Below, piece after piece: positions 305-47,779 of a stretch of 64,000 nucleotides of DNA. The position numbers and the translations under genes were made by a program. Location: positions 1 through 64,000 of IMG/VR virus record IMGVR_UViG_2663763407_000006; one strand, 5' to 3'. Every line of letters starts with the position of its first letter. Positions within the stretch are counted from its first letter, which is position 1. The notes beneath the pieces are model-generated. The model did no database searches. It saw only the letters and a program-made list of their open reading frames with translations, and was not told the DNA's origin. The stretch is from a virus (Duplodnaviria; Caudoviricetes).

Positions 305-1474
305 TTACTGCTCGATAGCCTCGTATGCCACATCCGACAACAATACTTCGAGAGACAGTTGTGTGGTGTAGCCGCTGTTACTCAGGCTGTGCGTCACCTT
401 GCTGATTATCCAGCTCTGTTGGTCTATCACCGATTTAAAACCGTTGACCGCGACAGGGGTTTCAGGAAATAAATCAGCGCGGCCCATGGCTAAGGTGATA
501 GAAAACTCCGCAACACCGCGCTGTAACTTCTCCCATTTAGATTGAGCTGCGCGCATAGCGGCTTTTTGCGTGGCGTAAACCGTGGTGATAGCAAAAATGT
601 TATCTTCTGACCCTACCAGATAATCCCCTTGTTTTTCCTCCACCGGCTTTTTCACTGCGGCCGCTTTGGTGCGGGTCGGTTTGGCTTTGGGGTGTTCCAG
701 TGCGCGGAGCTGCTTAAACTTTGGCTTACGCTGCAACTTAACCTTTTTCGTCTTGGCCGGTTTGGGGTCTTTGGTGTGCAACCAACTGGCACTCACGCCG
801 GTATAGGCTCCCCGGTCAGCAATACTAAAGCTGTGCTGGTCGCCATCTTGCCGGGTGATCGTCATCTGCGGAATGGGTTTCCCGCTGGCAGTAACACCAC
901 TGCCCGGCTTGATAAATAACAAGCGTCCGGCTTTTACGGCGGCCACCGCGCCATTCAGTGAAGCTAATCGGGTGATAAATTTGGCGTCAGTCTCTTGGGT
1001 CTGGTCGATATGAGAGATAGCGATATCATCCAGACCCTCGGCCAGCATGGCGGTGAGCTTGTTGCGCTCGGCCACTTGCGCCACCACTTTACCCAGCGTT
1101 GTCTCATGATAAGAGACTTCACGGCGGGTATTGAGCGAGCCGCGAAAATCAGCACTGCGGGCGCGAATGGTCAGCGTATCCGGTGCGCCGTGATGCTCGA
1201 CCTCATCCACGGTAAAATCACCCTTACCAATCAGCGCCGACCCTTTCCAGCCCAAGAACACCGACAACACCGCGCCGCGTTCTGGCAAGGTGAGCTGGCC
1301 GTCTGCGTCATCCAGCTCAATATCGAGCTGGTCAGCTTCAAAGCCGCGGTTATCGGTCAGGCTCAGGGACAACAACCGGGGGCGAATATTCTGCGTGATA
1401 TCTTTAGAGTTAATGGTCAGCATAAAGTCCGGGGCCATATCCGCCCCGGCCGGTAGAGACATGCCGGTCATCAT
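305..1474 (-). CDS. D: Tail/baseplate hub protein gpD
   Basis: LTDNRGFEADQLDIELDD and GDFTVDEVEHHGAPD motifs; P2 synteny. Confidence 0.95.
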   Translation of the reverse strand: MMTGMSLPAGADMAPDFMLTINSKDITQNIRPRLLSLSLTDNRGFEADQLDIELDDADGQLTLPERGAVLSVFLGWKGSALIGKGDFTVDEVEHHGAPDTLTIRARSADFRGSLNTRREVSYHETTLGKVVAQVAERNKLTAMLAEGLDDIAISHIDQTQETDAKFITRLASLNGAVAAVKAGRLLFIKPGSGVTASGKPIPQMTITRQDGDQHSFSIADRGAYTGVSASWLHTKDPKPAKTKKVKLQRKPKFKQLRALEHPKAKPTRTKAAAVKKPVEEKQGDYLVGSEDNIFAITTVYATQKAAMRAAQSKWEKLQRGVAEFSITLAMGRADLFPETPVAVNGFKSVIDQQSWIISKVTHSLSNSGYTTQLSLEVLLSDVAYEAIEQ

Positions 1475-1956
1475 GAGAATAACCCCCCGATAGCCGCCTG
1501 CGCTTTGCCGGTTATGGCCGTCACCTTACCTAGCAACTCGTCAGCCTGTTGTTGCAGGTCGCCGAACATGGCCGTTAACGACTCATCAACCCGCAACAGA
1601 TTGAGGGTGAACTCAATGCGCCGGGCGCTGCCATCTGCAAAAAATAGCGCGCCGGTCTGACTCAGGCTTTCAATCACGAACATGCCATAAATCATGCCAC
1701 TGCCCTCAACCAGAGGCCAAGCCTTGCCTTGGTCAGCCATGGCCTCAAGGGTCAGTAATGACAGGCGGCCACCGGTCAGCTCCGGCAACAACACCCCGGA
1801 CAAGGTGATTTTTTCGCTATCGACGCCAAGAAACTGCGCGGATGGCCGCAAGCCTACCCGGCTGTTAGTGGGCCAACGATAATCAATATTGCGCCCCATG
1901 CTTTGATAAGGCGTGGTCTGGCGCATAAAAACAAATAAACCCAGTGATAACATCAT
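1471..1956 (-). CDS. U: Tail protein gpU
   Basis: MMLSLGLFVF...ITLSGVLLPELTGG; synteny. Confidence 0.93.
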   Translation of the reverse strand: MMLSLGLFVFMRQTTPYQSMGRNIDYRWPTNSRVGLRPSAQFLGVDSEKITLSGVLLPELTGGRLSLLTLEAMADQGKAWPLVEGSGMIYGMFVIESLSQTGALFFADGSARRIEFTLNLLRVDESLTAMFGDLQQQADELLGKVTAITGKAQAAIGGLFS

Positions 1957-4900: not shown

Positions 4901-5416
4901 TTAGCGGCCAATGGCCTTGCGTTGGGCTTCCAGCAGGTCTACGCCGTTAACCATTTCAATCAGGTTAACCACGTCAATCTCCATCACTACCTTGCCGTCA
5001 ATGGTCAGCTTGTAATAAGTACACTGGGTGGATACCTTGGTTTCGGTGTCTTCCCCTTGTTTGGATTCGCCGCCATCAATCTCTTTATGACGGCCACGGA
5101 TTTCGACCTCTACCGCTGTGACCTCGCCGGTGTCGTCGCGCTGATAAGCCCCGGCAAAACGCAGCGGAACCGCGTCAACTTTTGGCGTTCCCCATTGCTG
5201 CAACACCAGCTCGTCAATGCCGCCCATCGACCACTCCATGGAAAGCGCATCGTCATCCAGCCCCAAATCAATCGGCGCAACGCCATTCATCCCGCCGCCC
5301 CGGTAGTTCTCCAGCTTGCGGGTCAGTTTTGGCAGGGTAATGGACGAGACGATCCCCATGTAATCCCGGCCATCGTTAAACAGGTTCATCAATTTCAGCT
5401 TACGTGGCAGTGCCAT
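4901..5416 (-). CDS. FII: Tail tube protein
   Basis: MALPRKLK...LPKLTRKLENYRGGGMNG. Confidence 0.96.
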   Translation of the reverse strand: MALPRKLKLMNLFNDGRDYMGIVSSITLPKLTRKLENYRGGGMNGVAPIDLGLDDDALSMEWSMGGIDELVLQQWGTPKVDAVPLRFAGAYQRDDTGEVTAVEVEIRGRHKEIDGGESKQGEDTETKVSTQCTYYKLTIDGKVVMEIDVVNLIEMVNGVDLLEAQRKAIGR

Positions 5417-5429
5417 AAGTCAGGTTTCC

Positions 5430-6599
5430 TTAGCTGTTGACGGCAGCGGCAAAGTTCACCAGATATTTATCGGTGATACGCTGGCGCAGGGTGAGGTCTT
5501 CCAGTGGTGGCACTGGGGTGTAGTCGTAATCGATAAACAGCTTGCCCGCTTTCAGGGTGTCTTTATCGTTGGCGCTGTCGTCATACCAGCAAGTGCCATC
5601 AATAATCAGCCCGGCAGATTTCATTTCGCGAAATTTGGCATTGATGCTGCCAATCATGTCTTTAACCAGCGTCGGGTGCATCGGGCGGTCAATCGCCCAC
5701 AACTGCGCCTCGGCCATGGTGTCCGCCAGAATTTGTGCGGTGCGGGTGTAGTTTTCGAAAGCAAACAGTGGATCATCGGAGCAGGTGCGCGAACCCCAAA
5801 ACTTGAAACCGTCTTTGCGGATTAGCGTGGTCACACAGGCTTTGTTAAGTAAGTCAGCGTCAGTGCCGACGGTCTGCAAATCCCAGTAGACGCTGGCAGA
5901 GATACCGGTCACGCCATTCACCCCGACGTTAGACAGGGTTTTGTGCCAGCCGGTTTCTTGGTCAATCTTGGCACGCAGGCCCAGCGCGCGAGCGGTGGCA
6001 TAAGCAATATCGGTACTGTTGGCGGTGGTGTTCCAGCTCAGGAAGTCCGGCCAAATCAACATCAGCTCACGCTGGCTGAAATTCTCGCGGTACAACATCG
6101 CTTCTGAAATAGTCTTGCAGCCATAGGCGCTGATATAGCCAAAGGCGCGCAACTGCTGGCAGACGCTCGCCAGTGCGGTGGATACTTGCTGATTATCCAG
6201 CCCCGGCACACCAAGAATACGCGGGCGCACGCCGGTGACAGATTGCGCATCTAACAACGCTTTCATGCCAGTGTAGCGGCCGTTCTCATCAGCGCCGCCG
6301 ATAATATTAGACGTGGTTTCATCCTCATCTTTACCCGTAGCCACGCGAACAACAACCGTGACCGGGCGAGCCTGTTCCGCAATCGCCAGCAATGACGTGG
6401 CCAGTGTGCCTTTTTTACCTGCTTTACCGGCAGCGGTCAGCACGTCAGTAATCAGTACCGGGGTATCAAGGGGAAAGGTTGCCGCGTCGGCATCCTCGGC
6501 GGTGCAGACCATGCCGACAATGGCGGTGGAAATAGTGGAAATGACACGCGTCCCCTCGTTGATTTCGAGAACGCGGACGCCGTGATGGTAATCACCCAT
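5430..6599 (-). CDS. FI: Tail sheath protein
   Basis: YHHGVRVLEINEGTR...DYDYTPVPPLEDLTLRQRITD. Confidence 0.96.
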   Translation of the reverse strand: MGDYHHGVRVLEINEGTRVISTISTAIVGMVCTAEDADAATFPLDTPVLITDVLTAAGKAGKKGTLATSLLAIAEQARPVTVVVRVATGKDEDETTSNIIGGADENGRYTGMKALLDAQSVTGVRPRILGVPGLDNQQVSTALASVCQQLRAFGYISAYGCKTISEAMLYRENFSQRELMLIWPDFLSWNTTANSTDIAYATARALGLRAKIDQETGWHKTLSNVGVNGVTGISASVYWDLQTVGTDADLLNKACVTTLIRKDGFKFWGSRTCSDDPLFAFENYTRTAQILADTMAEAQLWAIDRPMHPTLVKDMIGSINAKFREMKSAGLIIDGTCWYDDSANDKDTLKAGKLFIDYDYTPVPPLEDLTLRQRITDKYLVNFAAAVNS

Positions 6600-6807: not shown

Positions 6808-8772
6808 ATGCTAGTAAGCCTGAAAGCACAGCACAACGCACAAAATAAATTCCGTCAAGACATTAACGGACTAAGAGCATGGGCAGTTATTGCTGTAGTT
6901 TTATATCATTTTGGTGTGCCGGGCTTCTCCGGTGGTTTTATCGGTGTTGATGTTTTTTTTGTTATTTCTGGTTTTTTAATGACAAAAATTATAGTTTCTG
7001 GAATCGAAGTGGGAGATTTCTCTCTTTTACGGTTTTACTTAGCCAGAGCAAGACGAATTATTCCTATGTTACTGGTGTTATGCCTATCATTAATCATTTT
7101 AGGATGGTTCTGGCTTCCAGAAAGCAATTATAAAACTCTAGCAACACATGTGCTCACTGCAATCTTATTTATATCTAATATTAAGTTTTGGCGAGAATCT
7201 GGATATTTTGACTCATCTTCACATGAGAAGTGGCTATTACATACATGGTCACTCTCAGTTGAATGGCAATTTTACATTATATTACCAGTTTTTATCTTAA
7301 TCGTATGGAACCTATTAAGTTACCGAGCAATGAAAACGTCATTGTTCATAGTTGGTTTTATTTCATTGTTCTTATCTTATTATGCATCATATCAATGGCC
7401 TGCTGCGGCATTCTATTTATTACCCACAAGAATTTGGGAAATGCTCGCAGGGGGATTAGTGTGGTGGTCAACAAGGAAAAACTCCCTATCCATTAATCTA
7501 TCTCGATTAACTGAGATCATTGGATTTATTTTTATAGTTTCGTCAATAATATTATTCGATTCATCTATGGTTTGGCCTGGGGTGTATGCGGCTTTGCCTG
7601 TACTGGGCGCAATGTTAGTACTTTCCGCTAAACGATCCGAATCATTATTCACTTCTAATAACCTTGTTCAAAGGCTTGGGACAAGCTCTTACTCTATATA
7701 TCTATGGCATTGGCCGATTGTTGTAGGATTAACTTATCTCGGTTTTCAGGGTAGTTATAAATGGGTGCTGCTAGGTATTATTGTCACAGTGTTATTAGGT
7801 GAGTTATCTCTTAAGTTAATAGAAAATCCAGCAAGAAAACTGTTTAGTAAATTCTCTATCACTTCAAACATAGTATACATGTCATTTGGAATTATTTTCA
7901 TTCTCATAATTTCGCTTGTAATAAAATACAATACTTTCGATCGTGGTATCAGAAGTAATGAAGAAACTATTCAACTTTACACAGAAATACAATCATTCCA
8001 TGTTATGCCCAAAAGAGATAACGGATATTGTTTTTATGATTTAAATAGTGAATCAAACCCCATTATTTCTGAAAGTAAATCAGTTTGTAAAATTGGCGAT
8101 AATTCTTTAAAATCTAAAGGATTACTTTTCGGTGATTCTTTTGCTGGTCAGTATGATCCTTTCATTGATAAGATAGGTAAAAAAGTTGGCTTTGCGGTTG
8201 ATTCAGTTTCAACTAACTGGTGTTTTCCTAGTTTGACTGATTCATTTAATGGCCCCAAGACACGCATAGCATATAAACAGTGCTTACTTAACAGAAAATA
8301 TCTAAAAGAGAATATTACCAAGTATGATTTCATTATACTTTCTGGAATATGGTCTGAACTGTATGAAAAAGGTTATAAACAAGATGTTATTAATGTCATT
8401 GAATATGCGAAATCGGAAAATGTTAAAGTGTACGTTATCGATTCACCCACTCAGTATGATGTAAATGTTTTCGCTAATTTCATGATTGCCGGAATGAATA
8501 ACTTGCCATTCAATTTAAAAGAACTCCCCCAAAACAATGATGTTAACAGAAAAAAAATGGCTGAAATTTTCTATAAAATGCATAATGACAGTATTATAAC
8601 GTTCATTCCTAGAGATGATATTTTCAATTCAACCGATACATATAGTTATAAAGGTATAGAGGTGCCATATTCTTTAGATGGATATCATATATCTATTGAT
8701 GGTGCATTAATGGCAGCAAGGAAATTTATCGAAAGCGGGGTTTACAAAAAGTACTTCCCTGAAAAAAATTAA
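6808..8772 (+). CDS. OafA-like acyltransferase-3 plus SGNH domain (probable O-antigen O-acetyltransferase), moron
   Basis: FRQDINGLRA, GFIGVDVFFVISGFL, HTWSLSVEWQFY, many TM helices; C-terminal GDSF...DGYH; AT-rich and opposite to the phage late genes. Confidence 0.9.
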   Translation: MLVSLKAQHNAQNKFRQDINGLRAWAVIAVVLYHFGVPGFSGGFIGVDVFFVISGFLMTKIIVSGIEVGDFSLLRFYLARARRIIPMLLVLCLSLIILGWFWLPESNYKTLATHVLTAILFISNIKFWRESGYFDSSSHEKWLLHTWSLSVEWQFYIILPVFILIVWNLLSYRAMKTSLFIVGFISLFLSYYASYQWPAAAFYLLPTRIWEMLAGGLVWWSTRKNSLSINLSRLTEIIGFIFIVSSIILFDSSMVWPGVYAALPVLGAMLVLSAKRSESLFTSNNLVQRLGTSSYSIYLWHWPIVVGLTYLGFQGSYKWVLLGIIVTVLLGELSLKLIENPARKLFSKFSITSNIVYMSFGIIFILIISLVIKYNTFDRGIRSNEETIQLYTEIQSFHVMPKRDNGYCFYDLNSESNPIISESKSVCKIGDNSLKSKGLLFGDSFAGQYDPFIDKIGKKVGFAVDSVSTNWCFPSLTDSFNGPKTRIAYKQCLLNRKYLKENITKYDFIILSGIWSELYEKGYKQDVINVIEYAKSENVKVYVIDSPTQYDVNVFANFMIAGMNNLPFNLKELPQNNDVNRKKMAEIFYKMHNDSIITFIPRDDIFNSTDTYSYKGIEVPYSLDGYHISIDGALMAARKFIESGVYKKYFPEKN

Positions 8773-11948: not shown

Positions 11949-12299
11949 TCAGCTCACAGGAATGGTTAAAGAAAGGGGAGCCGCGCTGTCTGTGCGGGTG
12001 CCGGTGATATCGACCACCATTTTTCCGTCAAAGGTGGTTTCAAATGTGATGCCAGTCAGTTTGACCCTTGGCTCCCAGCGCAAAATGGCACTGTAACTGG
12101 CGGCCATAATTTGCAGGCGCAGGGCCGGATTTTGTGGCTGGTCAATCAGCTCCGATAGCAGCGAACCATAAGCGCGGCGCATCACCCGCGAACCAACAGG
12201 GGTGATAAGAATGTCGGCGATTGACTGGCTGATGTGGTCAGCGTCGGTAATGGTCTGCCCGGCGTTGCGGCTCATGCCGAGATAGGTGGCAGTGGTCAT
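11949..12299 (-). CDS. W: Baseplate wedge gpW (gp25 family)
   Basis: HISQSIADILITPVGSRVMRRAYGS...WEPR. Confidence 0.94.
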   Translation of the reverse strand: MTTATYLGMSRNAGQTITDADHISQSIADILITPVGSRVMRRAYGSLLSELIDQPQNPALRLQIMAASYSAILRWEPRVKLTGITFETTFDGKMVVDITGTRTDSAAPLSLTIPVS

Positions 12300-28586: not shown

Positions 28587-29639
28587 GTGGATATAATAAA
28601 AATTCAAGATCAAATAGATAAAAATAGAAAGACAGTCTCATTTGATAGCTATGATATAACTATCAAACAAGTTTATGATATGTTAGCCGAAGGTATTATA
28701 GATATATCACCAGAATATCAAAGGCATTTTATTTGGGATGAAACGAGACAATCACAACTTATTGAGTCAATTTTTCTCGGCATACCTGTTCCAAGCTTAT
28801 ACATGGCAACAAACAGGGATTCATCTTGGGACGTTGTTGATGGGGTTCAACGCCTATCGACTATTATCAACTTCATTGGAAGCGAAGATGAACCTGCTTT
28901 AGAGGGACATTATAATCAATTGACATTAGAAGGATTGGAAAAGTTAGATTCAATGAATGGACTTACTTTTGATGAAATGCCAAAGCAACTGCAGATTATG
29001 TTTCTAACTAGGTCTATAAAACTGACAGTATTAAATGATCGTAGTGATTTTTCTGTCAGATATGATCTCTTTGAAAGGTTAAATACTGGAGGGGTTATAC
29101 TACACCCGCAAGAAATCAGAAACTGTGTATATACGGGGGAATTTAATGATTTCATAAAGAAATGTGCAGAAAATGTTAACTTTAAGGCGGTAGTTAAGTT
29201 GACTGACAATGCTAAAAAGACAGGGAATCTCGAAGAGTTAGTTCTTAAGTTTTTTGCATATTATGAAAACTCGATTGGATTCACTCATAGTGTTAAAGGT
29301 TTTTTAAATGACTATATGGAGAATAAAACCACATCGTTTAAAAATAAAAAAAATCTTGAAAGTATCTTTACTGAAACCTTTGAGTTTTTGAATAATAGTC
29401 TCCCTAATGGAATCGTTCGAGGTAATAGAGTAAACATCACGCCAATAGTTCTTTATGAGGCTATTTCTGTCGGGACTGCAATGGCATTAAAAGTTAAGAA
29501 TAAAAATGATTTGAGTAAAGACAGATTGATTAAATTACTTAATAGTCCTGAATTGAAAAAACATACAACGGGAGCAACTAACTCTCGTAAGGCACTTACA
29601 ACTAGAAATGAAATAGTTAAGGGTGAGCTAATAAAATGA
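28587..29639 (+). CDS. DUF262 (GmrS/ParB-Srx-like) protein
   Basis: PEYQRHFIW, LIESIFLGIPVP, VVDGVQRL, LFERLNTGG; AT-rich. Confidence 0.9.
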   Translation: MDIIKIQDQIDKNRKTVSFDSYDITIKQVYDMLAEGIIDISPEYQRHFIWDETRQSQLIESIFLGIPVPSLYMATNRDSSWDVVDGVQRLSTIINFIGSEDEPALEGHYNQLTLEGLEKLDSMNGLTFDEMPKQLQIMFLTRSIKLTVLNDRSDFSVRYDLFERLNTGGVILHPQEIRNCVYTGEFNDFIKKCAENVNFKAVVKLTDNAKKTGNLEELVLKFFAYYENSIGFTHSVKGFLNDYMENKTTSFKNKKNLESIFTETFEFLNNSLPNGIVRGNRVNITPIVLYEAISVGTAMALKVKNKNDLSKDRLIKLLNSPELKKHTTGATNSRKALTTRNEIVKGELIK

Positions 29640-30340
29640 TTTTTACACCGCTGAGAGATTCTGCTCGAGTTAGATTTAATGACGTTATGATTTATATCAA
29701 CTATGTTGAATCTCTTGAGCCTACTGTAAATGGAGCCCATAATAATATAATACAAGAAACTCCCCCACAAGTAAAAATGTTTAGAGGGCTTTTTTACGTG
29801 CATATTTATTCTTATGTTGAAAAAACAGTGAATGACTTACTTATCAGAACAATTGCATCTATAAAAGAAAAAAACATATGTAATAAGCATTTTATTACTC
29901 AATTTAACTCCATATCACTCCACTCAAAAATGCAGTCATTTAAACAATCAAAAAACACGCTTTACTTAAGCAAAGCGTGCGATGTCTTTAGTGGAGTTGA
30001 GGGGGAGTCAGTATGTACAGTAGCAGAAACTGTATTTTCTGAGTTTTTACAAAATATATGGTATAAAACTATTGCTGAAGTTTTAGCTGCATTCGGTATT
30101 ACAAATTTCACAAGAACACCAATAGAAATAGCGACGATTGATGAAGTGGTTAATAAAAGAAATGCAGTTGCACATGGTAGGCTTTCAGCTGTAGAAGTAG
30201 GAGAAGCACACAACTGTTCTGTCCTCAGGGATAAAATGAATATTATCGATAATCTGGTAAACGAACTAATTGACACATTTGAGTTGTATGTAATAAACCT
30301 ACAATGTGTAAAAACTGAGTTTAGGGTTTTATATATATAA
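29636..30340 (+). CDS. HEPN-family ribonuclease
   Basis: RNAVAH (RxxxxH) near the C-terminus; ATGA overlap with the DUF262 gene. Confidence 0.8.
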   Translation: MIFTPLRDSARVRFNDVMIYINYVESLEPTVNGAHNNIIQETPPQVKMFRGLFYVHIYSYVEKTVNDLLIRTIASIKEKNICNKHFITQFNSISLHSKMQSFKQSKNTLYLSKACDVFSGVEGESVCTVAETVFSEFLQNIWYKTIAEVLAAFGITNFTRTPIEIATIDEVVNKRNAVAHGRLSAVEVGEAHNCSVLRDKMNIIDNLVNELIDTFELYVINLQCVKTEFRVLYI

Positions 30341-30367: not shown

Positions 30368-31399
30368 ATGGCAGTACGGAAGTTACCCAACGGGAAGTGG
30401 GTCTGTGATTTTTACTCAGATGGCCGTGATAGTAAGCGGGTTAGGAAAACCTTTGTTACTCGCGGTGAGGCGTTGCGCTTTGAACGTGAACAATTAGCGC
30501 AACGTGGTGATCTGGATATTGACTACACACCGGCAGAGACTGCCGCACAGAGGTTAAAAACATTGGTCGGTCAGTGGTATGAACTCCACGGGCGCTCTTT
30601 GAGTGACGGCAAAGCAAGATTAGATAAACTCAATATCCTGTGTGATAACTTGGGCGATCCTGCTGTTGCTGATTTTGACCGGGAAGTGTTCGCCAAGTAC
30701 CGCAAGCAGCGTTTAGCCGGTGAGTTTAGTCGTAAGCCAAAACACGGAATCGTTAAACCGCCAAAAGAGGCAACGGTCAACCGTGAACATGCCTACCTAC
30801 GAGCTGTCTTTAATGAGTTGAAAAGGCTAGGACATTGGAATCATGCTAATCCGTTGGATGGTGTTAGGTTATTTCGTGAAAGCGAAAACGAATTAACTTT
30901 TCTTTATGAAGACGATATTAAACGTCTGCTGCATGAGTGTGACAGTTCCAGCAACAAAGATCTCGGTATCATCGTTCGTATCTGTCTGGCTACCGGCGCG
31001 CGCTGGAGTGAAGCGGAGCAACTAAGACAAGCTCAGGTGATGCCAAATAAAATTACTTATATCAACACCAAGAGTAAAAAGAACCGAACAGTCCCTATTT
31101 CTGCGGAACTGCATAAACTGATTCCAAAAATGAAAGGGCGCTTATTCGTCAATGCCTATGATGCATTCGGCCAAGCCATTGACAGGGCTAAATTGGAGTT
31201 ACCTACCGGCCAGTTAACCCACGTTCTACGCCATACTTTCGCCAGTCATTTTATGATGAACGGGGGTAATATATTAGTGCTACAACAAATCCTCGGGCAC
31301 TCCACTATCCAGATGACCATGCGCTATAGCCACTTTGCACCGGATCATTTAGAAGCTGCAGTGAGTTTGAATCCATATGATCGCATTTCGAGAAATTAA
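30368..31399 (+). CDS. int: Tyrosine integrase (186/HP1 type)
   Basis: TGARWSE, HVLRHTFASHF, LGH, Y in MRYSH. Confidence 0.96.
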   Translation: MAVRKLPNGKWVCDFYSDGRDSKRVRKTFVTRGEALRFEREQLAQRGDLDIDYTPAETAAQRLKTLVGQWYELHGRSLSDGKARLDKLNILCDNLGDPAVADFDREVFAKYRKQRLAGEFSRKPKHGIVKPPKEATVNREHAYLRAVFNELKRLGHWNHANPLDGVRLFRESENELTFLYEDDIKRLLHECDSSSNKDLGIIVRICLATGARWSEAEQLRQAQVMPNKITYINTKSKKNRTVPISAELHKLIPKMKGRLFVNAYDAFGQAIDRAKLELPTGQLTHVLRHTFASHFMMNGGNILVLQQILGHSTIQMTMRYSHFAPDHLEAAVSLNPYDRISRN

Positions 31400-31421
31400 T
31401 AACATGAGAATATAACGATGA

Positions 31422-31736
31422 ATGAAATGGTTGGAAATTTTTGTAATAACTGCGTCGAATGAACGAATTATGACGTTGTTGGAATATCTAGTTCTCGGGG
31501 TAATGCTGGCTGTGTTCTGTAGCAAGGTACGAGAAATCTGCCGGTTGCCAGAATATGCAGCCAGAATGAAGCCTGTTATTCCTGATTATGAATGGATCAC
31601 ATACGGGGAGCGGGTCAGTAATGAGGCATTACCATTAGCAGTTGGTTTGACCAATGGGGAGCAGATCAAAGTGACTCTGAGATATTTATCAATCCAATGG
31701 CGATTTAGCATTCGGGCGATAACACTGAAAAGTTAG
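31422..31736 (+). CDS. Possible hypothetical protein or gene remnant
   Basis: Open frame only, no motif. Confidence 0.3.
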   Translation: MKWLEIFVITASNERIMTLLEYLVLGVMLAVFCSKVREICRLPEYAARMKPVIPDYEWITYGERVSNEALPLAVGLTNGEQIKVTLRYLSIQWRFSIRAITLKS

Positions 31737-31826
31737 ACGCTGACAGAAACTTTTTAATTCATAAATACGCTCTCAGTCATTAAAGCTTGTGTAAAATAGT
31801 TAAAAAATAAGCAACGGAATCTAGTA

Positions 31827-32966
31827 ATGGCTAATAATAAAAGAGACGATTTCAGCGCCAAAACGATTAGAACTCTACAGGAGAGAGCCGGATGTCGATG
31901 CTCTATGCCTGGCTGTGGAGCAGTGACAATTGGCCCCAGTGAGGAGTCCTCAGAAAAATCTATTAATCTCGGCGTAGCAGCCCACATCTGTGCGGCAGCC
32001 CCTAAGGGGAAACGCTACGACCCAAATATGACTACTGAAGAACGGAGGCATATAGAAAACGGCATTTGGTTATGTGTATTGCATAGCGTTTTAATCGATC
32101 GAGATGTCATCAGTTACCCAGTAGAAGTGTTGCACGCCATGAAAATAGCTCATGAGGAAGCGATTAAGCTCGAAAATAGGTCAGGGCAAGGATTTCTTCA
32201 ACTTTCTGATTTTATTGCAATAGGTCCAGATATTGTAGGGCTTGGTGAACTACTGGGAAGTACCGGTAACAGTTGGTCCATTAGAATTGATCACTTCGTT
32301 ACTGGCGATATATTAAAGCTCATTAGTTTCATTGAGAGTTATGAAGAGCAGGAATTTTTGGATCGATACCTCATTATTAATGCACTCGGTGATGGTCGCC
32401 AGCTTGCCGCCGCACCTTCATGGCGTAAAGATGGAAAATCCATTGAGCTAAAATGCATAGTAAAGAACCGATTTCCACGTAAAAATGTAAACAATTTAGG
32501 CTCTACGCTTGCTACGAACGCCTCGAATGACATCTACTTCATTAATGGGAACTTAGCAGTCGTGAGTGGGATTAAAGCCTTACCTCAAAAAATTAGAACG
32601 ACTCTTTCCTTGATTCAGGGGGAGTCTCCATTTTTCCCTAAGGCTGGAACTCGTCTCAAAGAGTATTTTGACGAATTTGAGGATTCACCATGGCTTTTAC
32701 GCTGGATTAAACTTGAAGTCATAAGACAATCATGCATACCCCTCTACGATAAAATTAATAATACAGAGTCGACTCCACTTGAGTGCGTTACTAAAGTTAT
32801 CGACGTTGTGCCAATATCTAATACTAAAAAAGGTAACTGGTGTGAGATTAAGTTTAAGCTGGAAGTTGAAGGGATAGGGATTTGGGAAGAAATCCTTTCA
32901 ATTTGCGTACCGAAGGGGGATATACCTCCTAAACCTAAAGGTTGGGAGCTATTGGCGATTAAGTAA
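31827..32966 (+). CDS. HNH nuclease with C-terminal gpW/gp25-like domain
   Basis: CSMPGC...AAHI...ENGIWLCVLH; C-terminal segment aligns without gaps to this phage's gpW. Confidence 0.8.
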   Translation: MANNKRDDFSAKTIRTLQERAGCRCSMPGCGAVTIGPSEESSEKSINLGVAAHICAAAPKGKRYDPNMTTEERRHIENGIWLCVLHSVLIDRDVISYPVEVLHAMKIAHEEAIKLENRSGQGFLQLSDFIAIGPDIVGLGELLGSTGNSWSIRIDHFVTGDILKLISFIESYEEQEFLDRYLIINALGDGRQLAAAPSWRKDGKSIELKCIVKNRFPRKNVNNLGSTLATNASNDIYFINGNLAVVSGIKALPQKIRTTLSLIQGESPFFPKAGTRLKEYFDEFEDSPWLLRWIKLEVIRQSCIPLYDKINNTESTPLECVTKVIDVVPISNTKKGNWCEIKFKLEVEGIGIWEEILSICVPKGDIPPKPKGWELLAIK

Positions 32967-33062
32967 TGCAACTTAATCTCTCTACTCGGATTAATGTGAC
33001 TACCACCCCCACAACAACCCAAACTAACCCGCCATCGTGTTTGGTAACTTACTGATTTTACG

Positions 33063-33075
33063 TAAGTGATTGATT
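33063..33075 (-). promoter_or_regulatory. IHF site in the att arm
   Basis: AATCAATCACTTA matches WATCAANNNNTTR, next to the att core. Confidence 0.6.
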
Positions 33076-33095
33076 TCCATAATGCCGTGAGAGTT

Positions 33096-33149
33096 TTTAA
33101 AATCCCTCGGCTTATGGCTGTGCGGGTTCAAGTCCCGCCCCGGGCACCA
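33096..33149 (+). repeat. att core: 3' half of tRNA-Leu(UAA) (leuZ-like), not an intact tRNA
   Basis: Begins at the anticodon loop TTTAAAA, then variable arm, GGTTCAAGTCC and CCA; D-arm and 5' acceptor strand are absent. Confidence 0.9.
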
Positions 33150-33193
33150 TGGAAACAAATCTAAGTAAAACAAAGTAGTATGAGTATGTCGTT

Positions 33194-33216
33194 AACCGCC
33201 GAGAGGCGGTTTTTTT
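33194..33216 (+). terminator. Intrinsic terminator after the tRNA 3' end
   Basis: aaccgcc-gaga-ggcggtt-ttttt. Confidence 0.85.
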
Positions 33217-33231
33217 GTGCCTGAAATCTCA

Positions 33232-33265
33232 TTCCTAAGATGTTCCTAACATCATTTCCTAACAT
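33232..33265. repeat. Three TTCCTAA(C/G)AT direct repeats, probable integrase arm sites
   Basis: Copies at 33232, 33243 and 33256, just past the int stop. Confidence 0.55.
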
Positions 33266-33289: not shown

Positions 33290-34306
33290 TCACTTTTTCT
33301 GACCGCCTACCACTGGCACAATTTCTGTTTTCCTATCATATCTTGCTGTTTGGGCTGTATTCTTGTGCCCTGAAATGGCTTGCTTCTCTGCGAGGGTTCC
33401 CTCTAAGTCTGATATTCCCTTGGCTTTTAAATCATGAAACGTGAAATCAAAGTCCAATTCGGAAAATGTTTTTGCGGCCAATAATTTTGCGTTGCGCCAC
33501 CGACTATTGAAACCATCTCTTGTGTAGCCATGCCCAGACCGCTGATGTAGTACATAAATACTGCTCACACCTGGAGCGATTTCTATTCCATCTGCAATTT
33601 TGATGGCCTGCTGTAATCTTTCCGTCCATGCCTTGATCTGTTTCTTTCCTGTTTTCCCTTGCTGTATAAATACCCCGGCATCTATTAGCTGTGACTTTTT
33701 TAAGGCGAGGATGTCTGCTTGCCGAGCGCAACAAAGATAGGCGAGTTCCATTGCCGCTTTTACAATCGGCGGAGCTACGTTGTAGAGAGCGCTATATTCA
33801 GCGTCAGTAATGTATCGTTCCCTGCTAACCTCTTTAAATTGCTTAACACCCTTGCATGGGTTGCCTTTTACCATTCCCCTCTCATAACCCCAACGATAAA
33901 CCCGCGATAGGAAAGTTTTCTCACGGTTTGCCTGTGTTCTACTGGCAACCCCGCGTCTATCCATATATTTCCTGATATGTTCAGGTTTTATGTTGTCTGG
34001 TTCCATTTTCCCGAAAACTGGTAATACTCTAAGTGAATATTTGCGGTAGTCTTTCTGCGTCTCAACAGCTAACTCATTAAAATCAACAGAGCGGAAAAAC
34101 TGTTCAATGAGTTTATTCAAGTTGGCTTTTTCTAATGGCTCATTATTTATTTTTTCGTAGCATGACCATACTTGAGAAATAGGTGCATCCAATGGGCATA
34201 GCGATATTGAGCCACCGCGGGCGGGGTGGAATTCATATTTCGATTTTCCACGATACACCCGAGGTGGTAATGCCGTGTCTGCGGCGTTCTTGCGTTTACC
34301 GGCCAC
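33290..34306 (-). CDS. int: Tyrosine integrase
   Basis: LCCARQAD, FHDLKAK, SGHK, ARYDR. Confidence 0.93.
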   Translation of the reverse strand: MAGKRKNAADTALPPRVYRGKSKYEFHPARGGSISLCPLDAPISQVWSCYEKINNEPLEKANLNKLIEQFFRSVDFNELAVETQKDYRKYSLRVLPVFGKMEPDNIKPEHIRKYMDRRGVASRTQANREKTFLSRVYRWGYERGMVKGNPCKGVKQFKEVSRERYITDAEYSALYNVAPPIVKAAMELAYLCCARQADILALKKSQLIDAGVFIQQGKTGKKQIKAWTERLQQAIKIADGIEIAPGVSSIYVLHQRSGHGYTRDGFNSRWRNAKLLAAKTFSELDFDFTFHDLKAKGISDLEGTLAEKQAISGHKNTAQTARYDRKTEIVPVVGGQKK

Positions 34307-45327: not shown

Positions 45328-46659
45328 ATGCCAATCCCAGCACAGCTAATAGGTTGTTTCTTTTATCATTTTACCTCAATAGAAAATTTTAGGTCAATTT
45401 TAGAACATGGCTTTCTTAGCCCAAAAGAGAAAGAAAGAAAAGGTATAAATCATTTAGATGTAGCAAATAATGAAATACAAGAACGTAGACGAGCTATGAT
45501 TGTGTCATGTAACAGTCCAACGACTGTCCATGACTATGTTCCTTTTTATTTTGCTAAGCGTACATCAATGCTTGCATCAATTATAAATGATAGAAAAATA
45601 GACCAGAAAAATATTATTTATTTTGCATTACCAATTGAATTGTCAGAACATACTGGAATAGCATTTACAGACTCTTCTGCGAATAAAATTGAACCTCCAA
45701 ATTTCTTTAACTCCTCAAATGATTTAGAAAAATTATCTTGGGATATTATAAATAAGGATAAATGGAAAGTCGATTGTGAAGAACAACGAAATATAAGAAT
45801 GGCGGAATTTTTATATCCAACTAGCTTGGCATTCTCTCATGTTGCAAAAATGATAGTTTGGGATAATGAAATAAAAAACAAACTTGAGGATATTGCCGCA
45901 TCTCTCGATACCCACCTCCCATACATATCTACTTATGATCATAAGCAGCACTATTTTGTAGCTAACTGGAAAAATGAAAATGAGCCACCTGTATCTATAG
46001 TAACAGGGCCAGATTCACTATTTAAACTAGTAAATGAAATAATATATAAAATTAATGATATGACGAATCATTTGTCTCCTAAAAAATCCATATGTAAACT
46101 TGTAAGTGAGATTAGATCTGATTTTTGTTGTTTAAAGGAACTTGCAGATATTGATGGCATGCAGACAAGTAATAACATTCATCATGAGGATGTAGGGGCG
46201 CATAGTAGGAGTGTTGCAAAAAATATAGTCAATTCGGAGTTATATGCTAAATTAAGTAATGATAATAAAGCGTTACTAGAACTAGCTGCGTACTTGCATG
46301 ATATAGGAAAGGGGCCAAAGTCTAGGTGGGTAAATGAAGTTCAAGATGTTGATAACGAACACTGTTGCAAATCTTTGCCTATGCTCGAGCGAATTATCGT
46401 TGAAGAGCTAGGTTCGATTCCCGTAGATACGCTTCGTAAACTGATTACATTTGTTGTATATGATGACATAATCGGAGAAATTGTCGCCAAAGGAAGGAAG
46501 GAATCTGAGTTTTTCCGAGTAGTGAAAGATAAAGAGGATGTTGACATGATAATTGAACTAGGAAAAGCCGATATGGCGGCAATTAATCCGGCTTGGATCG
46601 ATATGCATTCTCAAGCAATCGAGAATGTACGTCAACGCGCCTATATTGCTATAGAGTAA
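45328..46659 (+). CDS. darT: DarT DNA ADP-ribosyltransferase fused to an HD domain
   Basis: FYHFTSIEN, HDYVPFYF, FTD, MAEFL; C-terminal AHS...YLHDIGKG...KAD. Confidence 0.85.
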   Translation: MPIPAQLIGCFFYHFTSIENFRSILEHGFLSPKEKERKGINHLDVANNEIQERRRAMIVSCNSPTTVHDYVPFYFAKRTSMLASIINDRKIDQKNIIYFALPIELSEHTGIAFTDSSANKIEPPNFFNSSNDLEKLSWDIINKDKWKVDCEEQRNIRMAEFLYPTSLAFSHVAKMIVWDNEIKNKLEDIAASLDTHLPYISTYDHKQHYFVANWKNENEPPVSIVTGPDSLFKLVNEIIYKINDMTNHLSPKKSICKLVSEIRSDFCCLKELADIDGMQTSNNIHHEDVGAHSRSVAKNIVNSELYAKLSNDNKALLELAAYLHDIGKGPKSRWVNEVQDVDNEHCCKSLPMLERIIVEELGSIPVDTLRKLITFVVYDDIIGEIVAKGRKESEFFRVVKDKEDVDMIIELGKADMAAINPAWIDMHSQAIENVRQRAYIAIE

Positions 46660-46669
46660 GGTTTTAATA

Positions 46670-47779
46670 ATGTTAACTTTTGTAGACGGTGACTTTTTTG
46701 ATTATGATGCTGACATTCGTATAAACACTGTTAACTGTGTCGGTGTTATGGGTGCTGGCGTAGCTTTAGCTTTTAAGCATAGATATCCGATGATGTATGA
46801 TGAATATGTGGATCAATGTAATAAAGGCCTAATCAAACCAGGAGTCCCTACAGTTTGGTCTCAGGAAGATTTGACATTAAAAAAAATAGAAATAATTAAT
46901 TTCCCTACGAAATCACATTGGAAGAAAAAGTCTGAATATACCTATATATCTGATGGGTTGGAATGGCTTTCAAACTATCTATTAGATAAAAAAGATAAGG
47001 TTGTCACATTACCTGCATTGGGATGTGGGCATGGAGGGCTTGAGTGGGAAAAGGTAAAAGAGATGATAATTAATTATCTTGACGGTTCTCCGTCGAATAT
47101 ATTAGTTTTTGAACCGAAAAGCTCAAAGCAAGCTGGTTCATTAAGTTTGGAGGGAAGAGTAAAAAATAAGAATGCTTCAAAAATAAAAGTATTAAAAAAA
47201 TTATCGAATGAATATCCGATGAAGCTTGCTGGATATACAGGGAAAGATTTATTTGTTTTTAACTATAAAAAACTTCCACAAGATTTTGATATAACACTTG
47301 TTATTAGTTCCAAACCAGATGAAGTGGAAATGAATATTATAAATAAAATTATTTATTTTTGCGCTAAAAATAACCTAAGTGTTTTGTTTGGGCCTACATT
47401 AATTGAAAAAAAAATAGCACTGAACCTTTCACGTAAAGGTAATGTAATAGGGGTTTTTCTTCCTACTAATATTTTCAATTCAGCTGATGAATTATCTGTG
47501 AAAGATTCTAATATAGTGCTGCTTTCTATTGGCGATCCATTAGTCTCTTTCGATAAAAAAGAATACTTACCATCAGTAATTAGTCGTATATATTTATCTA
47601 AATACACAATATTTACTACACCTAGGCTAGAGTGGTTAAAGAAAAGGGAAAATGACTTTTTGTCCTCTGACAGTAAGTTGTTATATATCGACTATGAGAA
47701 CTTGAAAGATGAAGATAGAAAATCGGTCGAGATACTTGGAGGCGTTCCTTTAAGTGTTGATGATATGACAATTTTTTAG
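46670..47779 (+). CDS. darG: DarG macrodomain antitoxin with a DprA/SLOG-like C-terminus
   Basis: NTVNCVGVMGAGVALAFK, INFPTK, PALGCGHGGL. Confidence 0.85.
   Translation: MLTFVDGDFFDYDADIRINTVNCVGVMGAGVALAFKHRYPMMYDEYVDQCNKGLIKPGVPTVWSQEDLTLKKIEIINFPTKSHWKKKSEYTYISDGLEWLSNYLLDKKDKVVTLPALGCGHGGLEWEKVKEMIINYLDGSPSNILVFEPKSSKQAGSLSLEGRVKNKNASKIKVLKKLSNEYPMKLAGYTGKDLFVFNYKKLPQDFDITLVISSKPDEVEMNIINKIIYFCAKNNLSVLFGPTLIEKKIALNLSRKGNVIGVFLPTNIFNSADELSVKDSNIVLLSIGDPLVSFDKKEYLPSVISRIYLSKYTIFTTPRLEWLKKRENDFLSSDSKLLYIDYENLKDEDRKSVEILGGVPLSVDDMTIF

Follow-up and report, generated by a model that had tools for sequence, protein, structure and literature searches.

The described systems closest to the gene studied here are defence effectors that carry an HNH nuclease domain. 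In Cap5, the HNH-SAVED effector of CBASS, the nuclease comes first with a regulatory domain behind it, and PDB titles name the ligand-bound protein an 'activated tetramer'. In SPARHA an HNH-APAZ protein (9om4) is found with an Argonaute partner; a paper on SPARHA Argonaute-HNH filaments cites this structure (PMC12738770). We analysed a window of 64,000 nucleotides, the first 64 kb of the 76,439-base provirus record IMGVR_UViG_2663763407_000006, in which a P2-like prophage carries a gene for a 379-residue HNH protein, here called the HNH gene. Behind the nuclease, in the place that SAVED holds in Cap5, lie two domains with the predicted folds of contractile-tail parts. We put at roughly 60% the probability that the protein is a stand-alone, phage-borne anti-phage protein, in which an HNH effector is joined to a baseplate-derived two-domain sensor and which probably acts by abortive infection. 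The open reading frame (ORF) and its domains lie in the window as follows:

31827..32966, plus strand: HNH gene, 379 amino acids, with HNH, tube-like and sheath-initiator-like domains (from the ORF list)
31839..32183, plus strand: Cap5/SPARHA-type Zn-HNH nuclease domain with linker helix, residues 5-119
32190..32471, plus strand: Hcp/tail-tube-like beta domain, residues 122-215, with an invariant G188/G190/R191 (NALGDGR) turn
32490..32906, plus strand: domain of the gp25/gpW/TssE superfamily (sheath initiators), residues 222-360
32580..32675, plus strand: conserved PQ...LS...GE...G.R core of the gp25-like domain, residues 252-283

An earlier, sequence-only reading of this DNA had drawn the ORF with exactly these limits and strand and had placed a Zn-HNH at its N-terminus, and the latter is borne out by profiles, fold and individual residues alike. 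For residues 4-116 the sole matches, whether among PADLOC models, solved structures or folds, are HNH domains of defence effectors. Specifically, PADLOC reports PDC-M68A at 4e-26, CBASS 'Effector endonuclease' models down to 2.7e-19, SAVED_HNH at 1e-16 and the SduA N-terminus model at 3e-10. The best sequence match among solved structures is 9om4_A (E 1.4e-16), and the Cap5 chains 8ysq, 7rwm and 7rwk follow with E from 3.7e-15 to 3.8e-10; in a VIA fold comparison the domain matches Cap5 7rwk_B with Z 14.2 and a root-mean-square deviation of 2.1 over 105 residues at 32% identity. An alignment of 28 homologues shows no variation at H53, N78, C83, H86 and D91, and conservation of at least 90% at C25 and C30. 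Because the catalytic and zinc residues are intact, the enzyme looks active as far as its sequence can tell, and it is of the immune-effector type of HNH, unlike the type associated with terminases. Conservation in the same homologues starts at residue 4, so that the 379-residue form is the likely product. A full-length AlphaFold2 model of it has a predicted local-distance difference score (pLDDT) of 85.1 and a predicted TM-score (pTM) of 0.74.

The C-terminal 260 residues can be modelled with higher confidence. Modelled by AlphaFold2 on 45 sequences, residues 120-379 reach pLDDT 93.8 and pTM 0.90, and the two domains in this stretch are therefore predicted to hold a fixed mutual orientation. 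Residues 222-360 are almost certainly a gp25-like domain. All 16 VIA rows that fall on this part of the model are sheath initiators or their kin. Eleven sheath initiators align with Z from 9.0 to 7.4 over 99-113 residues: pyocin R2 (6u5b_a, Z 9.0, 99 of 99 residues), a Geobacter protein (2ia7_A, 8.9), Pa193 (9b45_G, 8.5), AFP (6rao_H, 8.4), six more baseplates (8.1-7.6) and Pam3 (7.4). TssE (6gj1_D, Z 6.3) and IraD (6od1_B, Z 6.0) come behind them, and a VIA search with the full-length model agrees. With Foldseek against the PDB the domain matches 2ia7 with probability 1.00 (TMt 0.67) and T4 gp25 (5iw9_B) with probability 0.99, and against BFVD, a collection of predicted viral structures, it gives 26 matches at E≤1e-3, all with probability 1.00, with E down to 4e-5 and TMt up to 0.71; those that carry a name are mostly gpW, gp25, DUF2634 and baseplate wedge proteins. 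In the ESM Atlas, residues 120-379 gave nothing usable, the best feature score being 0.75 to an unnamed cluster.

Sequence profiles lead to the same superfamily. Across the 28 homologues the core residues P253, L260, S261, G265, E266, G274 and R276 are invariant, and PF10934 (Sheath_initiator, formerly DUF2634) matches 16 of them, with a best E of 1.7e-4. The profile built from these sequences finds solved sheath initiators through positions 224-301, namely E217 gp34 (8env_H, E 2.1e-3) and Pa193 gp35 (9b45_G, 2.3e-3), together with a phi812 baseplate subunit (9euf_L, 3.8e-3), Pam3 gp21 (7yfz_X, 0.054) and a GPW/gp25 protein (9rce_C, 0.23). The fusion of an HNH domain to a member of the gp25/gpW superfamily, which was the central proposal of the sequence-only reading, thus stands on fold matches, profile matches and the PF10934 hits in homologues, and the fold search against gp25 and TssE that it suggested as a check does find a gp25 fold in the predicted model (Foldseek 0.99-1.00, VIA Z up to 9.0).

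The argument by which that reading had reached the superfamily fares less well. It had set residues 252-283 without gaps against the gpW of this same phage; both peptides are present where it placed them and share 8 of 32 residues, but this identity is not above chance, as 181 of 200 shuffled gpW sequences also contain a 32-residue window with at least 8 identities. We accordingly discarded the ungapped match as stand-alone evidence. The register itself is picked again by hhalign when the family profile is compared with 20 P2-type gpW sequences (residues 245-288 on gpW 16-59), but the profile link is weak (E 0.042, probability 1.3%). The gp25-like domain is closer to the PF10934 branch (XkdS/DUF2634) than to the phage's own gpW (PF04965).

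The sequence-only reading had recognized the HNH and the gp25-like domain but had overlooked a second tail-derived domain between them. Judged from the predicted model, residues 122-215 are probably an Hcp/tail-tube-like domain. The VIA matches here extend from Z 7.2 to 5.3 with 79-94 residues aligned: a Milano baseplate chain (8fqc_U1, Z 7.2), Hcp1 (4hkh_A, 7.1), Bacteroides Hcp5 (7yw0_A, 7.0), a Streptomyces contractile injection system (CIS; 9gtp_a, 6.7), IglC (6.7), a Mu baseplate chain (9ki1_0, 6.4), the monocin tube (6.2), SPP1 Dit (5.9), and the tubes of PVC, Pa193, PhiTE and lambda (5.7-5.3, the last being 6p3e_A at 5.3). Of 34 rows on this domain, 32 are tail, Hcp or hub proteins, the exceptions being 4qxz_B and 4ywn_A; the count takes in two Hcp1 fusion constructs, 7o42, which is one by its title, and 4ksr, which we take to be another.

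The two tail-derived domains travel together. In a full scan of 1.84 billion representative proteins 7,375 pass E≤1e-3, many of which match the HNH domain and nothing else; 152 pass E≤1e-30. To tally domains we applied three local hidden Markov models, made from the 28-homologue alignment, to 149 of the best 150 representatives (P0121-P0269; P0004 excluded). Ninety-one contain HNH, tube-like and gp25-like domains, and 32 contain the tube-like and gp25-like domains without this HNH; a further 14 have HNH and tube-like domains (probably fragments), 11 have HNH only and one has the gp25-like domain only. The tube-like domain accompanies the gp25-like one in 123 of 124 proteins, so that the pair can be treated as one module.

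What is attached to this module varies. Among the 32 proteins without this HNH, 19 have at least 80 extra residues, and Pfam names the partner in 13 of these, leaving 6 unnamed:

P0187, P0213, P0225, P0233: module fused to TIR
P0162, P0175, P0179, P0243: module fused to an adenylate/guanylate cyclase (Guanylate_cyc)
P0182: module fused to GGDEF
P0199: module fused to a caspase
P0263: module fused to a calcineurin-like phosphoesterase (Metallophos)
P0157, P0186: module fused to a helix-turn-helix (HTH) domain

Exchange of the enzymatic head on a constant module is a pattern known from defence and conflict systems, and the fusions to cyclases and HTH domains place the module on the input side. 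The family is widespread, and it couples a baseplate-derived domain pair to many different immune effector domains. A search of metagenome contigs with the cyclase-fused P0175 returned 28 loci, of which one 2-kb contig (L147) contains the module, whereas the rest share only the cyclase domain. On that contig, beside the cyclase-fused module, positions 1076-1900 (minus strand) hold an ORF that by eye looks metallophosphatase-like and resembles cyclic-nucleotide phosphodiesterases. Separately, the BFVD search returned two proteins of uncultured tailed phages, A0A6J7WX90 and A0A6J5L2B6 (514 and 854 amino acids), that match the whole module over 281-289 columns (E 2.8e-5 and 9.5e-5) and may be further phage-encoded fusions.

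Relatives of the HNH gene keep no constant company. When one genome of each species was scanned, 272 relatives were confirmed, and among the best 80 loci 47 match over at least 300 residues; these come from Beta-, Gamma- and Alphaproteobacteria, Acidobacteriota, Myxococcota and one Paceibacterota genome. We analysed the flanks of 38 of the 47, having set aside five short contigs (L010, L020, L023, L031, L041), two partial matches (L044, L046) and two loci in which no focal ORF was called (L022, L025). Counted within four genes of the focal ORF, every flanking gene family is limited to at most three of the 38 loci, and no tail gene is conserved around them; the HNH gene therefore needs no fixed partner. 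The flank tallies cover the 25 commonest families, and those listed include phage integrases, IS110 and Tn3 transposases, a resolvase and a conjugation protein, as well as Wadjet JetC/JetD (2 loci), Dsr1 (2 loci), a type IIG restriction enzyme, PDC-S05, OloA, a CBASS cyclase and SLATT_4. One of 126 scanned flanking proteins matches a CBASS cyclase model. In IMG/VR, 13 of 63 loci are full-length, several of them at contig ends. Their neighbours were scanned as 50 ORFs from 12 of the 13; five of the 50 are integrases, and P2-type tube, gpU, gpD and sheath genes occur in single loci. Among the viral loci, L086 was set aside as a duplicate of L085. The viral loci and their neighbours indicate that temperate phages, contractile-tailed ones among them, are recurrent carriers of the family.

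The carrier in our window is itself such a phage. To the left of the HNH gene the sequence is P2-like prophage throughout, and the features that fix the position of the gene are these:

305..1474: hub protein gpD of the P2-like prophage
4901..5416: tube protein FII of the P2-like prophage
5430..6599: sheath protein FI of the P2-like prophage (homologues carry PF04984)
11949..12299, minus strand: baseplate protein gpW of the P2-like prophage, a comparator outside the system (homologues carry PF04965, GPW_gp25)
30368..31399, plus strand: P2-type tyrosine integrase (int), directly upstream of the HNH gene (Pfam Int_N 9e-30, Phage_integrase 1.5e-23)
31422-31736: ORF of 104 amino acids between int and the HNH gene (from the ORF list)
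33099..33224, plus strand: attP-derived right-hand end of the P2-like prophage (from the match to the end of OM140653.1)
33290..34306, minus strand: second integrase, directly beyond the attP-derived end

The decisive comparison is with Yersinia phage vB_YenM_31.17 (OM140653.1, Peduoviridae), in which the counterpart of the upstream integrase is annotated as an integrase. Positions 31405-33098 of the window match bases 1 to 1,679 of that record at 96.3% identity, and positions 33099-33224 are 99.2% identical to its last 126 nucleotides, head-to-tail, with record position 1 beside the HNH gene. Because the two ends of the record match in this manner, in the phage genome the HNH gene joins the gpD end through the 126-base stretch; and because that stretch is the right-hand attachment site in the prophage, the gene is cargo between int and att, just as the sequence-only reading had placed it. 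The HNH gene lies on the same strand as int and outside the late operons.

The attP-derived end contains a terminator-like hairpin at 33194-33211, and by eye its sequence reads as a tRNA 3' fragment at about 33118-33150; ARAGORN found no whole tRNA in the window. A second prophage, the end of which resembles Pectobacterium phage ZF40, adjoins the P2-like one, and positions 33096-33257 also resemble the end of ZF40 (82.6%). The two prophages appear to sit in tandem, seemingly at one tRNA-derived attachment site, with the P2-like element ending at about 33224. For the 104-residue ORF at 31422-31736, Pfam and PADLOC scans gave no family match, and it may be a remnant and not a gene; within it, about 31530-31630 is 84-88% identical to short pieces, unannotated or annotated as IS3, in six E. 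coli records. OM140653.1 annotates the HNH gene as a 312-residue 'lysogenic conversion protein' that begins at the internal Met68 (L001 6609-7547; window 31827-32027). A start at Met68 would delete C25, C30 and the catalytic H53, and several of the library proteins (P0123, P0151, P0152) likewise begin at query residue 68.

Taken together, an intact nuclease of a type that stays silent in other immune systems until it oligomerises, a module in the place of SAVED, the swapping of effectors, autonomy from neighbours and a position in phage cargo make it likely that this is a single-protein abortive-infection system. The defence role suggested by the sequence-only reading is likewise the reading that the genomic data support best, given an immune-type HNH, an effector-swapping module, the lack of a conserved partner around the 38 loci and carriage on mobile elements. 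How the protein would be triggered can be approached from the ancestry of the module. Rather tentatively, and at somewhat less than even odds, we propose that the module recognizes an incoming contractile-tailed phage by its tube, sheath or baseplate subunits, and that nuclease molecules brought together by this binding become active; the sequence-only reading likewise had a sheath or baseplate protein of an infecting myophage activate the nuclease. In this view the module would retain the protein-binding habits of its tail ancestors and would intercept such subunits late in infection, when the foreign phage produces them. The clusters so formed would turn on the HNH domains in the manner of Cap5, which oligomerisation activates, and the nuclease would cut DNA and so abort the infection. 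A more specific form of the same idea, possible but doubtful, would make the module a decoy: a baseplate core that mimics the pair of tube initiator and sheath initiator, on which tube and sheath subunits of the invader start to assemble, thereby clustering and firing the attached enzyme, which is the HNH here and TIR, caspase or a cyclase in other proteins.

If tail recognition is true, bacteria and temperate phages would have turned the virus's own assembly interfaces into detectors, and the module would be a new portable sensor domain with a predicted specificity for contractile-tailed phages. If the decoy core is true, viral structural parts would have been made into an immune receptor that responds to the assembly reaction of phages and so covers an entire class of them; it would also be the first sensor known for components of the sheath or baseplate. 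Even with another trigger, the module would be a new input domain of conflict systems.

Several observations weigh against these proposals. For the C-terminus of the query itself Pfam gave no match, and the PF10934 matches in homologues all lie below the gathering score of 32.9 bits (those printed range from 16.5 to 25.6 bits). The tube-like assignment comes from fold, with middling Z scores (best 7.2) and no sequence-profile match. T4 gp25 docks on the wedge by its E-P-R motif, and W75, E76, P77 and R78 are invariant in the 20 gpW sequences; at the equivalent place in the HNH family, as located from secondary structure and not from structural superposition, only P305 is invariant and the consensus is C-I-P-Y. 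Loss of the W-E-P-R motif marks the gp25-like domain as diverged from functional baseplate parts, and its binding partner may be of an unrelated kind. The IraD match (Z 6.0) shows that the gp25 fold can be reused for a partner outside the tail. The P2-like carriers make their own tube, sheath and gpW, so a tail sensor must spare self or stay harmless during induction; a general one would fire on prophage induction unless it discriminated self or were silenced. Finally, the defence genes among the flanks are raw listings of the commonest families and not enrichments over a background.

Some of these points lead to the alternative that survives best, although we consider it unlikely: that the protein is indeed a defence protein, the module of which binds some other phage product, guards a host protein or, as its SAVED position might suggest, receives a small-molecule signal. 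The presence of IraD among the fold matches (6od1_B), the loss of the W-E-P-R motif of gpW, the location of the module exactly where Cap5 has SAVED and the contractile tails of the carrier phages themselves all agree with such a trigger, and the strongly conserved turn of G188, G190 and R191 could be a ligand site. However, the two tail-derived folds form a nearly obligate pair (123 of 124) in a fixed orientation (pTM 0.90), which is easier to understand if the ancestral surfaces still matter. A role as receiver of a signal is further disfavoured by the cyclase and GGDEF fusions, which put the module upstream of signal production, and by the scarcity of CBASS cyclase matches among flanking proteins (1 of 126).

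It is improbable that the nuclease instead serves the lytic cycle of its own carrier, docked to or timed by the assembly of that phage's tail, for instance in late degradation of host DNA or as a passenger of the virion. The gene is encoded by P2-like phages that make the matching tail parts, and some viral contigs have gpD, gpU, tube or sheath genes next to it. Yet most of the 38 loci lack conserved tail genes and their flanks vary, the same module is fused to TIR, caspase, cyclase and HTH domains, and the HNH is of the immune-effector and not the terminase-associated type. The gene is also located outside the late operons, between int and attP, and is transcribed with int.

Still less credible is a toxin secreted by a type VI secretion system (T6SS) or an extracellular CIS, an 'evolved Hcp' with an HNH DNase. 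Hcp proteins with fused HNH toxins are known, and residues 122-215 are Hcp-like and residues 222-360 TssE-like. However, the Hcp-like domain has about 95 residues against 120-170 in the matched Hcp chains, the nuclease is N-terminal, which is the reverse of evolved Hcp, and no immunity, T6SS or CIS gene is conserved nearby in the 38 loci; the other partners of the module include the HTH, cyclase and GGDEF domains, which are not toxins, and the HNH matches intracellular immune effectors. That the gp25 resemblance is a coincidence and the C-terminal region an unrelated fold can be dismissed with near certainty, for although the shuffled 8-of-32 identity, the 1.3% hhalign probability against gpW and the missing Pfam match in the query would suit it, PF10934 in 16 of 28 homologues, five solved sheath-initiator or baseplate chains at profile E 2e-3 to 0.23, eleven sheath initiators at VIA Z 9.0-7.4 and the 26 BFVD matches at E≤1e-3 do not.

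The favoured reading of the HNH gene as a phage-borne defence gene may be set beside the other cargo of the window. P2 has cargo hotspots. Here the slot between the repressor gene (cI) and int, at 28587-30340, holds a DUF262/GmrSD_N protein (PADLOC NsnA 1.9e-71, PD-T4-2_A 5.8e-51) and a HEPN protein (RiboL-PSP 1.8e-16), with a GC content of 0.32-0.38. In vB_YenM_31.17 an ATPase and a second gene occupy the slot instead; in a 99%-identical viral contig the ORF homologous to one in that slot is a DUF4435 protein, and the ATPase and DUF4435 pair is presumably PARIS-like. Because the contents differ between the two phages, the integrase end of the phage is a cargo region, and the cI-int slot looks like an exchangeable defence slot. 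Two further features lie elsewhere in the window:

6808-8772: gene for a fusion of AT3 acyltransferase and SGNH domains, between the sheath and tail-fibre genes (AT3 3.4e-28, SGNH 2e-21; GC 0.32-0.35)
45328-47779: DarT-DarG pair of low GC in the second prophage (DarT, PADLOC 1.2e-42, with an extra HD domain; DarG, 8.6e-55, macro domain)

The first, which we take to be in the Z/fun position of P2, is plausibly serotype-converting, since its architecture is typical of O-antigen acetylases. The second is a toxin-antitoxin defence pair of the DarTG type.

We can now return to the described systems. The HNH protein shares with Cap5 the same kind of HNH, the order of nuclease first and regulatory domain behind, and probably also activation by oligomerisation. 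It differs in having no SAVED domain (Pfam finds none, and the SAVED_HNH models cover residues 6-116 only); its C-terminal 260 residues fold as tube-like and gp25-like domains instead. CBASS would also require an adjacent CD-NTase gene, whereas the neighbours here are int, the 104-residue ORF and attP, and none is conserved across the 38 loci. SPARHA supplies the best sequence match for the HNH domain, but the protein has no APAZ domain and no Argonaute partner. PDC-M68A has a model that matches HNH residues 4-114, but there is no PDC-M68 partner gene, and the SduA model of Shedu matches residues 4-113 only, through its optional N-terminal HNH, while the Pfam scan gave no DUF4263. The matches to SPARHA, Shedu and PDC-M68A all end at about residue 115. 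Because every defining part other than the HNH is absent, the protein falls outside CBASS, SPARHA, Shedu and PDC-M68.

The same holds for the structural families. With gp25, gpW, TssE and XkdS (PF04965, PF10934) the protein has in common the fold and the PQ..LS..GE....G.R core within residues 222-360, but its gene lies outside the tail cluster, it is fused to a nuclease, its W-E-P-R motif is reduced to P305 and its scores fall below the Pfam cut-off. Its fold places it in the gp25 superfamily, yet neither context nor motif makes it a baseplate protein. With tail tube, Hcp and hub domains it probably shares the beta-sandwich fold of residues 122-215, but not the length (about 95 against 120-170 residues) nor any detectable sequence similarity, and evolved Hcp toxins of the T6SS differ by the reversed domain order, the full-length Hcp part and their immunity gene and T6SS context, whereas the 38 loci show no conserved neighbour. 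IraD, an anti-adaptor of E. coli that binds RssB and regulates RpoS turnover, is the precedent for a gp25 fold reused outside the tail as a protein-binding module, although it is a single domain with no enzyme attached.

In a recent preprint Avs16 is reported to sense the tail tube protein, and the tail sheath and the baseplate hub are listed among the core phage components without a known sensor (10.64898/2026.01.04.697583). Our own literature search, which left subscription journals and supplements mostly uncovered so that an earlier description is possible, found no account of a sensor made of a tube-like and a gp25-like domain. The HNH protein is thus probably a defence that combines sensor and effector in a single protein and whose sensor module, derived from a virus, is undescribed. 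In joining a sensor domain and a toxic effector in one protein it resembles the Avs families, DSR2 and CapRel. To our knowledge, however, the sensors described in bacteria for phage structural proteins have folds that are not related to the virus: those of the Avs families, DSR2 and CapRel are STAND NTPases or other non-viral folds, whereas the sensor proposed here is built from viral structural folds.

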